From NCBI GenBank assembly GCA_964620935.1, contig CAZUHW010000004.1, positions 14,362 through 78,361 on the forward strand: a DNA stretch of 64,000 nt. The letters run 5' to 3'. The notes under the pieces were generated by a model. That model ran no database searches. It was not told the origin of the DNA and saw only the letters and a program-made list of their open reading frames with translations. The position numbers were made by a program, and so were the translations under genes. Shown piece after piece: positions 37,712-41,914 of this stretch (within the stretch, counting starts at the first letter, position 1; every line of letters begins with the position of its first letter). The stretch is from an uncultured Dehalococcoidales bacterium (GTDB lineage Bacteria; Chloroflexota; Dehalococcoidia; Lucifugimonadales; Lucifugimonadaceae).

Positions 37712-38866
37712 ATGAAGATAACAAATATAAAACCTTACGCGGCCCAATTTATCTCACAGTCTAGGTCATCTAAATCACATCCAAAAAAATGGGTTTTCAT
37801 TAAAATTGAAACTGATGAAGGAATTTACGGCTGGGGAGAAATTGGCACAGGCTCTTCGATTAGTGAAAAGCTAATGAGTACTGCAGTTAATGAAGTAACA
37901 GAACTGTTTATTGGTGAAAATCCGATAGATACAGAAAGATTATGGCATAAGCTTTTTAGAAAATTTTCTTATGTAGGTTCAAAAGGATTTACCACTTCTC
38001 TGATTGCGGGTTTCGATATTGCACTTTGGGACATTAAAGGGAAATACAGCAATATGCCAATTTATGATTTACTGGGGGGGAGGTTCAGAGATCCAGTAAG
38101 ACTTTATTGTAATTCGTGGTTTGATGGTTGTGATACTCCTGAAGATTATGCAAAAGCTGCAAAAACCAATCTCTTAGAAAAAGGTTATAGTGCTTGTAAA
38201 TTAGATCCATTTCTTGAGATGGTTCCTTATCACACTATGTATCAAGATGGATTTATTTCGCAAGATGGAGAAGAAGAAGGTTATGAGATTGTATCTGCTG
38301 TTAGAGATACCGTTGGTCCTAAATTTGAAATCCTAATAGATGCTCATGGTCACTATAACGTACCAAATGCAATACGGTTAGCAAATAATCTATACGATAG
38401 ATTCAAAATAGGATGGTTTGAAGAACCTCTGCCTCCTGAGAGCATTAAGGGATTAAAGCAAGTTAAAGAAAATACTGATGCTCCAATCTGTGTCGGAGAG
38501 CGACTTTATACTAGGTACGATTTTTTACCTGTTCTGGAAAATGGCTTATCTGACTACATAATGCCTGATACCGTATGGACCGGCGGAATTTCTGAAACAA
38601 TCAAAATAGCAAACATGGCTGAAACATATAATGTGCCTGTTTCTCCCCATGTTATCCCAGGAGGGCCAATAGAACTTATATCTGCTGCTCATGTTGTAAG
38701 TGCAATCCCAAATTTTTATAGACTAGAACACTCCTTGTCTCTTATCCCTGTTCACAATAGTTATCTAAAAGAGCCTTACAAGATTATTAATGGAGAATTT
38801 CACCTCAATAGCAACCCTGGCTTGGGATTCGATCTCAATGAAGAAAAATTGGAAAAGCTCTTTTAG
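37712..38866 (+). CDS. enolase-superfamily enzyme (mandelate racemase/muconate lactonizing family)
   Basis: GIYGWGE, DIALWDIKGK, metal ligands in IDAHG...FEEP...GER, and the C-terminus PGLGFDLNEE. Confidence 0.85.
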   Translation: MKITNIKPYAAQFISQSRSSKSHPKKWVFIKIETDEGIYGWGEIGTGSSISEKLMSTAVNEVTELFIGENPIDTERLWHKLFRKFSYVGSKGFTTSLIAGFDIALWDIKGKYSNMPIYDLLGGRFRDPVRLYCNSWFDGCDTPEDYAKAAKTNLLEKGYSACKLDPFLEMVPYHTMYQDGFISQDGEEEGYEIVSAVRDTVGPKFEILIDAHGHYNVPNAIRLANNLYDRFKIGWFEEPLPPESIKGLKQVKENTDAPICVGERLYTRYDFLPVLENGLSDYIMPDTVWTGGISETIKIANMAETYNVPVSPHVIPGGPIELISAAHVVSAIPNFYRLEHSLSLIPVHNSYLKEPYKIINGEFHLNSNPGLGFDLNEEKLEKLF

Positions 38867-38969
38867 CTTGTTATTGCAAAAGATCAAAAGGAATAAATAA
38901 AGTAGATAATATTCACTGGGGAATGATTATGATAAGAAAGGCATGAATTTATTCGTGTTGATACGGAAT

Positions 38970-39004
38970 CAGACCCTTAATTTTTTAAGGGTCTGAAATT
39001 TTTT
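38970..39004 (+). terminator. intrinsic terminator after the enolase-family gene
   Basis: 9-11 bp stem CAGACCCTTAA/TTAAGGGTCTG with a T-rich loop, followed by AAATTTTTT. Confidence 0.65.
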
Positions 39005-39013
39005 AAATCACTA

Positions 39014-39042
39014 TTGACATCATATACGTAACCGTGTAATAT
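39014..39042 (+). promoter_or_regulatory. near-consensus sigma-70 promoter, unit 1
   Basis: TTGACA at 39014-39019, a 17-bp spacer, and TAATAT at 39037-39042. Confidence 0.7.
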
Positions 39043-39049
39043 CTATTTC

Positions 39050-39176
39050 AACGTTAGACGTAACGAGTGGGAAATTGGAAGGGTGAACTCAAGGGACGCT
39101 GCATCTGGAAGAAGAACCACTATTCCGTATCGGGAGGATAGCTCTCACTCAGCAATGAGTGAGAGTTCTTTCTTTT
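39050..39176 (+). ncRNA. unclassified structured RNA, copy 1 (sRNA or cis-regulatory leader)
   Basis: The 5' end is inferred about 7-8 nt after the -10 hexamer. About 49% G+C (hand count) against an AT-rich background. Helices: 39052-56/39061-65, 39066-70/39117-21 and 39120-25/39136-41. Terminator: 10-bp stem 39142-51/39156-65 with a GCAA loop, then UUCUUUCUUUU. No credible ORF. Confidence 0.65.
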
Positions 39177-39230
39177 GTGCAACAAAAATACACGGAAAAG
39201 TTTAAGGAAATACACGGAAAAATTTGTCTA

Positions 39231-39259
39231 TTGACATCATATACGTAACCGTGTAATAT
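39231..39259 (+). promoter_or_regulatory. near-consensus sigma-70 promoter, unit 2
   Basis: TTGACA at 39231-39236, a 17-bp spacer, and TAATAT at 39254-39259. Confidence 0.7.
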
Positions 39260-39266
39260 CTATTTC

Positions 39267-39394
39267 AACGTTAGACGTAACGAGTGGGAAATTGGAAGGG
39301 TGAACTCAAGGGACGCTGCATCTGGAAGAAGAACCACTATTCCGTATCGGGAGGATAGCTCTCACTCAGCAATGAGTGAGAGTTCTTTCTTTTT
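39267..39394 (+). ncRNA. unclassified structured RNA, copy 2
   Basis: Identical to copy 1. The terminator stem is 39359-68/39373-82 and the U-tract runs to 39394, ending 27 nt before the ParB-like ATG. Confidence 0.65.
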
Positions 39395-39420
39395 GTATCA
39401 ATTCTTTATAATGTTTGTTA

Positions 39421-39978
39421 ATGAAAGAAATTCAAGAATTTAAAAACATTTCTCTAGAAAAAATTAATATATCTACTACTCATGAAGATTTAATAGATGA
39501 GGCAGATATAGATAATATTGTTGCTGATATAAAAGAAAAAGGTTTATCTAGGCCTATAATTGTTTCATTAGAAGACGATAAATACTCACTTATGCTTGGA
39601 ACTAAAAGACTTATGGCTGCAAAAAAAGTTAGTAGCAGTTCAATTTTTTGCGGTGTAATTAATGGAAAAGTAGATAAGTCCGAAGTGGCAGCAATTGCTT
39701 TATGTTACACCAGTCTGGAAGATATGCTAAACGATGAAGATAGAACATTAGCTATACATTATCTCAATAAAAACTTCAAAGGTGATTTAAACAAAATGTC
39801 ATCTGTTACAAATTTAAGTACTGAAGAAATAAAATCTTATTTAAATTTTTATGAAGATGCAGAAAAAGCAAAAAGTTATTTAAACAGTATTAATGCAAAA
39901 GACTTTGAAAAAAAATTAAGTTCTTTAGCCCCAGAAGAACTAGGCGACTTAATTAAATTATTAGAAAAATTAAACTAA
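39421..39978 (+). CDS. orphan ParB/Srx-like N-terminal-domain protein
   Basis: The ORF opens at TTG 39415 and the ATG at 39421 is more likely. ISLEKINIS...IVADIKEKGLSRPIIVSLEDDKYSLMLGTKRLMAAKKV follows the ParB N-domain pattern (GxxR box retained as GTKR). Helical C-terminal half. No Shine-Dalgarno site seen. Confidence 0.6.
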   Translation: MKEIQEFKNISLEKINISTTHEDLIDEADIDNIVADIKEKGLSRPIIVSLEDDKYSLMLGTKRLMAAKKVSSSSIFCGVINGKVDKSEVAAIALCYTSLEDMLNDEDRTLAIHYLNKNFKGDLNKMSSVTNLSTEEIKSYLNFYEDAEKAKSYLNSINAKDFEKKLSSLAPEELGDLIKLLEKLN

Positions 39979-39990
39979 AGTATTTCTATA

Positions 39991-40083
39991 TTATCTTCCG
40001 CCTGTAGCTACAGCAAAAACAACAATAATTGCCACTATCAAACAAGCAATAAGAAACGGTGGGCTAGTTAAAAACTTTATCAT
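39991..40083 (-). CDS. possible 30-aa single-TM micro-protein
   Basis: Not in the ORF track. ATG at 40083 with AAAGGA 7 nt upstream, 24 nt downstream of the bcp stop. Peptide MIKFLTSPPFLIACLIVAIIVVFAVATGGR. Confidence 0.25.
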   Translation of the reverse strand: MIKFLTSPPFLIACLIVAIIVVFAVATGGR

Positions 40084-40107
40084 AATGAATCCTTTCTTAT
40101 TTACATA

Positions 40108-40575
40108 TTATGTTTTTACCCTATTTTGTACGAATTTAAGTACTTCAAGCGGATGATTTTCTGGGTCATTAATTTCTTTCCATGTTTCAATTACAATGCC
40201 AGCTTCATCTATAAAATAAGTTTCTCTTTTAATCGAATTACCAAACTGTTCGCTTACAAAAAAGGTCCCAAATTCTTTTGAAATCTTATAATGAGTATCA
40301 GACAACAAATCAAAATTTAAATTAAAATCTTTTGAAAATTTCTTATGAGAATCATTATTGTCAGCACTTATTCCTATTACTTCACAATTGAATTCTTTAA
40401 ATTCTGAATAAATATCTCTAAATTTACAAGATTCTCTTGTGCATCCCGGAGTATTATCTTTAGGATAAAAATAAATAACCAATAACTTTCGGGAATAATC
40501 TTCTAATTTCTTTTTAAAACCTGAAGTATTAATTAATTCAAAACTTGGACAGTTATCTCCAATCTCTATAGACAT
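40108..40575 (-). CDS. bcp: thioredoxin-dependent peroxiredoxin Bcp
   Basis: YFYPKDNTPGCTRESC is the peroxidatic-Cys motif of the Bcp/PrxQ family; 155 aa. Confidence 0.85.
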   Translation of the reverse strand: MSIEIGDNCPSFELINTSGFKKKLEDYSRKLLVIYFYPKDNTPGCTRESCKFRDIYSEFKEFNCEVIGISADNNDSHKKFSKDFNLNFDLLSDTHYKISKEFGTFFVSEQFGNSIKRETYFIDEAGIVIETWKEINDPENHPLEVLKFVQNRVKT

Positions 40576-40627
40576 ATTAGTAAAATCCTTCTATAACTAT
40601 TATTAGTAAAATAAATTTTTTAATTCT

Positions 40628-41914
40628 ATGAATAAAAAACCAAATATAATTTTTATATTATCAGATGATCTTGGATACGAAACTTTAGGTTGCTATGGTG
40701 GCACTTCCTACAAAACACCTAATCTAGATAATTTGGCTAAAACAGGAGCTCGCTTTAATAATGCTCACGTACAGCCTCTTTGTACACCAACTAGAGTGCA
40801 ATTAATGTCAGGAAAATACAATTTTAGAAATTATATTGGATTTGGATTAATGGATCCTAAAGAAAGAACATTTGGTCATATATATTCTGAAAGTGGCTAT
40901 AAAACTTGTATAGCTGGAAAGTGGCAATTGTATTCTTATAATCCTCCTGGTGAAAAACCTGAAGATAGAAATAAGGGTCAAAAAATTGAAGATGCAGGTT
41001 TTGATGAATATTGTGTATGGCATGCTCATCAAACTGAAGAAAAAGGTTCTAGATATAAAGATCCAATAATTTACCAAAACGGTGAATATTTAAAAGATAC
41101 AAAAGAACAGTACGGAGATGATATATTTACTGACTATATCAATAATTTTATTGAAAAAAATCAAGATGATCCTTTCTTTGTTTATTTTCCCATGGCACTA
41201 ACTCATGACCCAAAAGAGCCAACTCCTGATAGTGAAGAATATAAACTTTTTGAGCCTCCATCAAACAAAACCCTAGGCGGGACAACATTTGATGAACTTG
41301 AAAACTGGGATGATGATCCAAAGTTCTACAAGGATATGGTTGAATATCATGACAAAATAATTGGCAGAATAGTTTCAAAATTAGAATCACTTAATTTAAG
41401 AGATGACACTTTAATAATTTATGCAGGCGACAATGGAACAACAAGAGGGATTGTTTCTATGATGGGTGATAAAGAAATTATCGGAGGAAAAGGGCTTACA
41501 AGCGACACAGGGACACACGTACCTTTAATATGCAATTGGCCAAAAGCTGTTCCTCAAGAAACAGTAATTGATGACCTTGTAGATGCATCAGATTTTTTAC
41601 CTACAATGTTAGATATAAGCAATATTGAACATAATGACATAACCGATGGCAGATCTTTTTACTCTCAAATTAGCGGAGGAAAAGGAAATCCAAGAGAATG
41701 GATTTACTTTTATTTTGATCCGAATAGCCCTAGACTCAAAAGACCTGTCTCAGAGTTTGTAAGAGAAAGAAAATGGAAGTTATACTCGGATGACAGAATG
41801 TTTAATGTATTAGATGATCCAGATGAAAAAAATATAATATCCTGCAATGAAACCGAAGAAACAAAAGAAGTTTATAAAAAACTAAAAAAAATACTTGCTG
41901 ATATAAAAAATTAA
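40628..41914 (+). CDS. sulfatase (formylglycine-dependent)
   Basis: NIIFILSDDLGYE and the sulfatase signature LCTPTRVQLMSG (CxPxR). Confidence 0.85.
   Translation: MNKKPNIIFILSDDLGYETLGCYGGTSYKTPNLDNLAKTGARFNNAHVQPLCTPTRVQLMSGKYNFRNYIGFGLMDPKERTFGHIYSESGYKTCIAGKWQLYSYNPPGEKPEDRNKGQKIEDAGFDEYCVWHAHQTEEKGSRYKDPIIYQNGEYLKDTKEQYGDDIFTDYINNFIEKNQDDPFFVYFPMALTHDPKEPTPDSEEYKLFEPPSNKTLGGTTFDELENWDDDPKFYKDMVEYHDKIIGRIVSKLESLNLRDDTLIIYAGDNGTTRGIVSMMGDKEIIGGKGLTSDTGTHVPLICNWPKAVPQETVIDDLVDASDFLPTMLDISNIEHNDITDGRSFYSQISGGKGNPREWIYFYFDPNSPRLKRPVSEFVRERKWKLYSDDRMFNVLDDPDEKNIISCNETEETKEVYKKLKKILADIKN

Follow-up and report, generated by a model that had tools for sequence, protein, structure and literature searches.

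What a short, orphan ParB-like protein does beside a duplicated structured RNA is the question raised by a locus of an uncultured Dehalococcoidales bacterium (contig CAZUHW010000004.1), of which a stretch of 64,000 nucleotides (nt), hereafter the window, was analysed. A preliminary description, made from the letters alone, had noted in the window an open reading frame (ORF) for a 185-amino acid (aa) product at 39421-39978, adjoined by an enolase-family gene and bcp and paired with a duplicated RNA carrying its own promoters, and had proposed that gene and RNA make up a self-contained two-component module, with a regulatory, addiction-like or defence-like role all held possible. We found that the ORF exists as described, that its neighbours are the two genes named, and that the RNA is present in two identical copies, each with a promoter and a terminator. 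The RNA is a new family with strong covariation and without a match in Rfam, and the product of the parB-like gene, which we call mini-ParB, is a truncated ParB/Noc/KorB-type protein and not a bare Srx-like domain. For the locus as a whole we tentatively prefer, with a probability of about 0.42, the reading that an orphan mini-ParB regulator is accompanied by a small RNA that doubles as an attenuating leader.

Two segments of 166 nt, at 39011-39176 and 39228-39393, were found to be 100% identical. Each RNA unit consists of a sigma-70-like promoter (TTGACA, 17-nt spacer, TAATAT), an RNA of ~125 nt and an intrinsic terminator, whose 12-base pair (bp) hairpin is followed by a U-tract interrupted by a C. 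The two units and the gene that follows them are arranged in this way:

39014-39042, plus strand: promoter of RNA copy 1 (TTGACA, 17-nt spacer, TAATAT).
39050-39176, plus strand: structured RNA copy 1, ~125 nt (covariance model, 151 bits; RNAalifold, pair counts and terminator scan).
39052-56/39061-65 and 39066-70/39117-21: helices P0, with a GACG loop, and P1 of copy 1.
39081-85/39102-06: helix P2 of copy 1, with loop AACUCAAGGGACGCUG; the linker AUUCCGUAUC is at 39122-31, and the 3' end consists of GGGAGGA, the terminator hairpin and the interrupted U-tract.
39186-39225, plus strand: spacer between the copies, with an 18-nt direct repeat (AAATACACGGAAAAGTTT, twice).
39231-39259, plus strand: promoter of RNA copy 2 (TTGACA, 17-nt spacer, TAATAT; promoter scan).
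39267-39393, plus strand: structured RNA copy 2, identical to copy 1.
39269-73/39278-82, 39283-87/39334-38 and 39298-302/39319-23: helices P0, P1 and P2 of copy 2; its linker is at 39339-48 and its terminator at 39349-90.
39421-39978, plus strand: parB-like gene (orphan mini-ParB, 185 aa), from the ATG at 39421 to a stop codon ending at 39978.

Homologous loci (L numbers) include 27 from a 20-mer scan of metagenomes and 5 from a 22-mer scan of genomes; we distinguish a main clade, to which the window belongs, and a sister clade of the protein. The RNAalifold consensus consists of four helices, namely P0 (5 bp, GACG loop), P1, which closes the RNA body, P2, which lies within this body and has an invariant loop (AAGGGACGCUG), and the terminator. 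Covariance model R1 retrieved 45 instances of the RNA, and pairs were counted on the 41 distinct sequences. Standard pairs occupied 98.3% of the helix cells, as compared to 45-54% in controls with slid partners, and 18 pairs were changed on both sides, as compared to 2-5 in the same controls, figures that are somewhat inflated by an alignment fitted to the covariance model. Support independent of this fit comes from copy 2 of L027, with a compensatory change in P1 (GAAUGG/CCAUU), and from the sister clade. In the sister clade P0 is rewritten as UGUGU/ACACA and UGCUU/AAGCA and P2 as CUCUC/GAGAG and CUCUG/CAGAG, with the loops unchanged, and P1 shows a register swap (GG-UG/CACC vs. GUGG/CCAC); the internal loops flanking P2 differ between the clades. 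The conserved stretch starts at the predicted +1 (AACGUU...) and stops at the U-tract. The flanks vary, and so does the promoter spacer, apart from a CGTG just before the -10 which, like both hexamers, is kept in all lineages. The degree of conservation is high: where the RNA is 87-91% identical to the window copy, the parB-like coding sequence is 52-66%, bcp 67-69% and a sulfatase gene 77-78% identical. The GC content of the RNA is 47% vs. 32% for the window.

A search of Rfam over positions 38000-41000 gave no match at E<=1; over the whole window only tRNA reached the gathering threshold, and the RNA of the sister clade gave only chance-level matches (E>1). Resemblances to SRP, 6S, T-box, guanidine-II, CsrA-sponge and L1-leader RNAs were dropped, as no model supported them. 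The RNA is not coding, because the overlapping ORF is not conserved: it starts with GTG at 39083/39300, its third codon positions do not vary within the invariant blocks, it ends at different stop codons depending on the lineage, and its sister-clade version is interrupted in L044 and L046. A phage origin of the RNA was likewise discarded, the eight viral-contig matches of a 16-mer being at chance level as judged by the covariance model, and a 20-mer of the RNA gave no match to viral contigs.

The covariance model found only two instances of the RNA in the window. A tandem pair of units is present, directly or by implication, in the window as well as in L006, L009, L016, L017, L018, L027, L028, L030, L031, L033, L038 and L040. 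The duplication is not an assembly artefact, because within independent contigs the two copies differ, by one base in L040 and by many bases in L027, L028, L031 and L038; many contigs break inside the RNA, as a tandem repeat would predict. Since the terminator stems are copy-specific in the deep, diverged lineages and identical in the window, the two-copy state is old, with occasional homogenisation. The AAATACACGGAAAAGTTT motif of the spacer is specific to the sub-lineage of the window; it is found once in L016, L028 and L040. As to the promoters, it was observed that the spacer of the main clade (39014-39042 in the window, and its homologs) contains a conserved CG-N4-CCGTG before the -10, and that a palindrome, ACCTGTTGACAGGT, covers the -35 in some lineages. 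Each may be an operator; neither is common to the sister clade, and no operator shared by the promoters of the two clades was found.

The mini-ParB was then compared with known families and structures. Its layout is that of a ParB N-terminal domain (residues ~4-95), a helix-turn-helix (HTH) domain (residues ~105-141) and a helical tail. Pfam ParB_N matched residues 8-94 with E=6e-6 and 26.7 bits, barely over the cut-off of 26.3 bits, and NCBIfam parB_part covered residues 23-161. When a profile of 12 family members was run against the sequences of the Protein Data Bank (PDB), the top match was ParB of H. pylori (4umk, E=4e-8, residues 25-150), followed by Noc, M. xanthus ParB, T. thermophilus Spo0J, Srx, KorB, PadC and SbnI. 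The AlphaFold2 model (pLDDT 84, pTM 0.73) consists of a beta-alpha N domain followed by helices. Foldseek aligned this model best with C-terminally truncated Noc, ParB and KorB structures in the PDB, over 140-200 columns that include both the N domain and the HTH; Srx, SbnI and PadC aligned with the N domain alone. The ParB-type fold recognised at first sight was therefore borne out by Pfam, the family profile, NCBIfam and the structural comparison, and the Foldseek check that had been suggested placed the domain with Noc, ParB and KorB.

The protein is much shorter than chromosomal ParB, as had been stated; its remainder had been called helical, which is incomplete, since the profile and Foldseek matches identify in it a ParB-type HTH followed by a helical tail of ~40 residues. 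The C-terminal half searched alone gave no significant match among PDB sequences. A parB-like protein of ~144 aa (P0012), found in L012, L029, L032 and L036, ends right after the HTH, so the tail is dispensable. Beyond the HTH the protein lacks a C-terminal dimerisation domain; canonical relatives are ~270 aa long. No RNA-binding domain was detected in the protein. The ParA-binding motif LG(R/K)GL is absent from all 12 family members examined; the window protein begins with MKEIQEFKNI, directly at strand 1 of the N domain, and so has no such peptide.

The motif GLSRPIIVSLEDDKYSLMLGTKRLMAAKKV, cited in the preliminary description, was confirmed in the 185-aa product. Box I (IVADIKEKGLSRPIIV) is kept across the family alignment, and the acidic residues ahead of it vary within the family. 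Box II has the form G-x-[K/R/L]-R, with G60 and R63 invariant; it reads GTKR in the window protein and GNRR, GTRR or GMRR in its relatives. The reduction of the GERR box to GTKR is thus correct for this protein, and the patch is only partly degenerate: Glu and one Arg are lost, whereas the GxxR P-motif is intact. Box III (ENxxR) is replaced by an invariant CYTSL (AIALCYTSLEDML). According to a 2025 survey, GxxR is the P-motif that is needed to bind nucleoside triphosphates (NTPs) and defines the fold, and orphan ParBs often lose Box III (PMC12704722). Judged from these motifs, the NTP pocket of the mini-ParB is altered in a way with which NTP binding may still be compatible.

The family is small. 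A word-indexed search for homologs gave 13 clusters, and an exhaustive profile search of 1.84 billion representatives set the true family at ~6 clusters at 50% identity; beyond it scores fall to E~1e-14, where canonical ParBs of ~270 aa with GQRR are found. The genome matches are metagenome-assembled genomes of marine Dehalococcoidia/Chloroflexota. Within a narrow group of low-GC marine Dehalococcoidia (32% GC in the window) the parB-like gene is carried on the chromosome and passed on vertically. The absence of a partition context, which had been pointed out, holds throughout the 64 kb: these contain no Soj/ParA-like ORF, no origin context and no canonical parS, the single match with three mismatches being at chance level and none having fewer. 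Moreover, no parA was called in any homologous locus. PADLOC gave only weak ParB-domain noise on the locus and PHROGs only generic ParB-like families; with no phage or plasmid signal found, such an origin was dropped.

We then examined how strictly RNA and gene go together. In the main clade the RNA, mostly in two copies, lies directly 5' of the parB-like gene in every one of the ~30 loci with enough DNA, and the gap between the last terminator and the gene is 25-45 nt. The features that follow the RNA units at closer range are these:

39407-39412, plus strand: TATAAT hexamer, 8 nt 5' of the ATG, a candidate -10 element.
39991-40083, minus strand: hydrophobic micro-ORF of 30 aa (MIKFLTSPPFLIACLIVAIIVVFAVATGGR) between the parB-like gene and bcp, called also in homologous loci.
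40108-40575, minus strand: bcp (AhpC-TSA/Redoxin peroxiredoxin), convergent with the parB-like gene, an adjacency kept in both clades.

In most of the diverged main-clade lineages a TANNNT, mostly an exact TATAAT, ends 6-9 nt before the ATG despite differing flanks, which suggests that the parB-like gene may have its own leaderless promoter in this clade. The lineages with the ~144-aa form (P0012; L012, L029, L032 and L036) were also seen to be without TATAAT before the ATG.

The sister-clade protein (P0018/P0166) has 215 aa and is 32-40% identical to the main-clade protein. Here the order is RNA, PALP, parB-like gene, convergent micro-ORF and bcp, and both flanks are wholly different, with purine-salvage genes upstream and a GFO/IDH/MocA-family oxidoreductase downstream. 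The RNA is in single copy (77-93 bits with the covariance model), 1.1 kb upstream of the parB-like gene, and directly leads the gene of a threonine/serine-dehydratase-like PLP enzyme (PALP, after the Pfam family), located as follows:

L041, 4904-5866: sister-clade dehydratase gene.
L044, 4896-5858: sister-clade dehydratase gene.
L046, 2248-3216: sister-clade dehydratase gene.
L047, 276-1235: sister-clade dehydratase gene.

This dehydratase has 320 aa, lacks a regulatory ACT domain and has no ortholog in the window. Its Shine-Dalgarno sequence starts 2-3 nt past the terminator U-tract, so the gene must be transcribed through the terminator. An ortholog in SAR202 (53% identical) has no RNA upstream according to the covariance model. 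Before the sister-clade parB-like gene lie a hairpin and a conserved, promoter-like TTTCAA-16-TGTTATTCT element. The linkage between RNA and parB-like gene is thus conserved, but not obligate, because in the sister clade the RNA leads the dehydratase and the parB-like gene apparently has its own promoter. The pairing first described stands for the main clade, where the RNA is immediately upstream, and not for the sister clade, where the dehydratase intervenes; the neighbourhoods of the homologs likewise show that the RNA co-occurs in both clades and is separated from the gene in one of them. With this intervening gene and with promoter-like elements before the parB-like gene in both clades, a self-contained two-component module is not established.

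A further component of the conserved block, which runs from this upstream element through the RNA (one or two copies), the dehydratase (sister clade only), the parB-like gene and the convergent micro-ORF to bcp, is the following:

38917-38996, plus strand: conserved upstream element, with UGGGGAAUG, hairpin A (38942-38957), UUGAUACGGAAU (38958-38969) and hairpin B (38969-38996).

It precedes RNA copy 1 in both clades regardless of which gene lies upstream, and is missing in L047. The two hairpins covary, with four pairs changed on both sides in hairpin B. The single-stranded 10-mer GAUACGGAAU of the element exactly matches the reverse complement of AUUCCGUAUC, the single-stranded linker of the RNA; the exact 10-mer occurs three times in the 64 kb, always at the locus and once inverted. 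The counterpart in L041, GAUGCGGAAAU, still pairs with the linker via G-U. As candidate targets in trans, sequences complementary to the conserved loop or to the linker were sought across the window and ~360 kb of fetched loci; none occurs outside this element. The element could be a pairing partner of the RNA, a protein site or a remnant. It was also observed that the spacer motif AAATACACGGAAAAGTTT resembles GATACGGAA of the upstream element, with an AC insertion.

In the reading that we prefer, the mini-ParB would act as a sequence-specific DNA-binding regulator or switch and not as a partition protein. The RNA units would be transcribed from their own strong sigma-70-type promoters and would end at the intrinsic terminators; the short RNA itself would be the main product, since two full promoter and terminator units have been kept intact over deep divergence. 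It is probably functional in its own right, because copy 1 has been kept though the promoter of copy 2 bypasses it. The C-interrupted U-tract may leave the terminator leaky, and read-through would feed the next gene, that is the parB-like gene in the main clade, where a leaderless promoter is also probable, and in the sister clade the dehydratase, which lacks its own promoter. On this view it is their conserved position and their transcription that couple RNA and protein; a partnership of a physical or regulatory kind between them would be possible.

Several points weigh against this picture. Promoter use, the 3' end of the RNA and read-through were all deduced from the sequence. The candidate leaderless promoter has no recognisable -35, and the L012 and L029 lineages do not have it. 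A segment identical or nearly identical to the 3' arm of the terminator can pair with its 5' arm, which makes a purely cis-acting reading possible. In the main clade this segment, GAGUGGGA, lies in the 5' strand of P1; its sister-clade counterpart, GAGAGGGAG, is located at the 3' strand of P2. About half of the main-clade sequences and 3 of 5 sister sequences are predicted to form the competing helix, with partners that differ by clade and no covariation. The conserved 10-nt complementarity between linker and upstream element is left unexplained by the preferred reading.

The cis-acting reading would make the RNA a riboswitch or attenuator: P1/P2 would be stabilised, be it by a metabolite, an ion, a tRNA or a protein, the terminator would form, and the downstream gene would be turned off, this being the dehydratase and then the parB-like gene in the sister clade and the parB-like gene in the main clade, with the short RNA as a by-product. 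It draws on the covarying RNA that ends in a terminator immediately 5' of a same-strand ORF in both clades, on a dehydratase that has no space for its own promoter, on the pairing that would sequester the 5' arm of the terminator in both clades, and on the high local GC in an AT-rich genome, typical of riboswitch candidates. Yet copy 1, equipped with a promoter and a terminator of its own, lies 200 nt away from the nearest ORF and is bypassed by the promoter of copy 2, and still it is conserved at every core position over deep divergence; the antiterminator partner differs by clade, and one of its pairs is lost through the compensatory change in P1 of L027 copy 2; P2 is flanked by internal loops that differ between the clades; and only two unrelated gene types lie downstream, so that no ligand is suggested. 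On this balance we regard a riboswitch as unlikely but possible. Somewhat less probable still is that RNA and mini-ParB are a dedicated pair, in which they would form a ribonucleoprotein, the RNA would be a decoy or antitoxin-like inhibitor, or the protein would be the transcription factor of the RNA genes, the terminator setting a high RNA to protein ratio. The most far-reaching form of this idea, an RNA-controlled ParB-fold clamp or regulator with the RNA as decoy, guide or allosteric partner and the upstream element as third component, is in our view improbable to the same degree. A dedicated pair would account for the same-strand order from RNA to parB-like gene within 1.2 kb in both clades, where the flanks have been replaced, and its layout, in which RNA repeats, a terminator and a protein gene follow one another, is reminiscent of type III toxin-antitoxin loci and of Y RNA genes next to rsr, the gene of the Ro protein. 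The conserved CG-N4-CCGTG of the main-clade promoter spacer would fit as well, as would a 13-bp imperfect palindrome (TTCCGTATCGGGA) that is found in every RNA gene and has an inverted half-site in the upstream element. The intervening dehydratase, the promoter-like element before the parB-like gene of the sister clade, a spacer motif that this clade does not have in common and the lack of a detected RNA-binding domain all count against it. Vertical inheritance, fixed synteny and the absence of a PADLOC match or of phage and plasmid signals argue against the toxin-antitoxin or defence variant in particular, and hence against the addiction or defence role considered at the outset.

The remaining explanations appear far less credible. 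Plasmid ParB/SopB centromeres are tandem repeats beside parB, and by analogy the repeats might act as DNA, as a centromere-like or operator array bound by the mini-ParB, with the RNA features being incidental; the 10-mer present three times in the locus, once inverted, would agree with this. That many helix positions are kept by G-U wobble, which is asymmetric in DNA, that conservation starts exactly at the predicted +1 and stops at the U-tract, that consensus promoter and terminator are on one strand only, and that the sister clade has a single copy 1.1 kb from the gene make such an array very improbable. We give equally little credit to a ParB/Srx-fold enzyme, either a sulfiredoxin acting on Bcp or a SerK/SbnI-type serine kinase working with the sister dehydratase, despite the adjacency of bcp in both clades and the presence of Srx and SbnI among the structural and sequence matches (sister protein vs. 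the SbnI model, E=1.6e-6). Free serine kinases of the SerK/SbnI type have conserved catalytic acidic residues and a D-G-x-H-R-type box; the mini-ParB instead has L-G-T-K-R at the box, acidic positions ahead of Box I that vary within the family, and weak matches to SbnI. Sulfiredoxin is a single-domain protein with its catalytic Cys in the GCHR box; here the box is GTKR, without Cys, an HTH is present, and the sister clade lacks the two Cys that the main clade conserves (Cys77 and Cys95). The best full-length matches, HTH included, are the DNA-binding ParB, Noc and KorB; bcp is convergent and not co-transcribed, and the PLP enzyme of the sister clade is of the Thr/Ser dehydratase type, not CysK or SbnA. 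Least credible of all is a conventional partition ParB with its ParA and parS elsewhere. The sequence family is ParB and only 64 kb of the genome are visible; the protein lacks the ParA-binding motif, the C-terminal dimerisation domain and Box III, in some lineages has only 144 aa, is encoded without parA, parS or origin context in these 64 kb, and is separated from the canonical ~270-aa ParBs, a far more distant group.

Among known systems, the mini-ParB can be compared with the orphan proteins that combine the ParB-CTPase fold with an HTH, such as Noc, KorB, VirB and BisD (PMC12704722). It shares with them the ParB N domain, Box I, GxxR and the ParB-type HTH, is encoded without parA, has a divergent Box III, and finds its best structural matches in Noc, ParB and KorB; by the definition of the same survey, a GxxR fold plus an HTH outside a parAB operon, it belongs to the orphan ParB-like HTH proteins (PMC12704722). 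It differs from them in being much shorter (185 aa, or 144 aa in some lineages), in having no dimerisation domain, no membrane-targeting helix as in Noc and no KorA-type partner, in the replacement of the Glu of GERR, and in being confined to two small clades of marine Dehalococcoidia. Orphan ParBs are now known to be common, and a minimal version made of N domain and HTH could show what the fold does without the dimerisation domain and Box III.

On the RNA side, two adjacent, near-identical units of promoter, RNA and terminator that evolve in concert in some lineages and diverge in others are also seen in PrrF1/PrrF2 and OmrA/OmrB, which are tandem small RNA genes with their own promoters and Rho-independent terminators. 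In contrast to these, the RNA described here has no similarity to Rfam families, is conserved at the level of a housekeeping RNA, keeps the sequence of the terminator hairpin between clades, and has a downstream ORF that abuts the terminator. With transcription-terminating and tandem riboswitches it has in common a covarying structure and a terminator directly 5' of an ORF, with a possible competing helix, so that a conserved covarying structure is found in the 5' leader of the downstream gene; unlike them, every unit carries a promoter, neither a ligand nor a coherent regulon can be recognised, and the antiterminator does not covary. Type III toxin-antitoxin systems (ToxIN) similarly place a repeated RNA, a terminator and a protein gene on one strand. 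They were rejected as a model, because here the protein has a ParB fold and not that of the ToxN/AbiQ RNases, each repeat is a 217-nt unit that brings its own promoter where ToxIN has ~36-nt repeats processed from one precursor, inheritance is vertical and syntenic in contrast to the patchy, mobile distribution of these systems, and no PADLOC family was matched.

Of RNA and protein, the RNA is the more novel and more valuable, as it lacks an Rfam match, covaries strongly, is conserved like a housekeeping RNA and is kept in two promoter-bearing copies in an uncultured, streamlined marine lineage, and it is a candidate for riboswitch or small-RNA validation; its constant position 5' of the mini-ParB offers a cheap test of whether a ParB-fold protein can couple to RNA. 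If true, an RNA-protein system would be the first RNA-controlled member of the ParB-CTPase family; as a less radical alternative, the RNA could be a new riboswitch class.

Concerning the other neighbours, only the trio of parB-like gene, micro-ORF and bcp is kept in both clades. The micro-ORF homolog of the sister clade has 32 aa and shares KF(L/F)TS(P/F)P with that of the window; beside it the sister clade adds a conserved membrane ORF of 49 aa. Finally, a Shine-Dalgarno-like motif was seen in no more than about a quarter (13 of 51) of the long ORFs of the window, where many starts are AT-rich or possibly leaderless.

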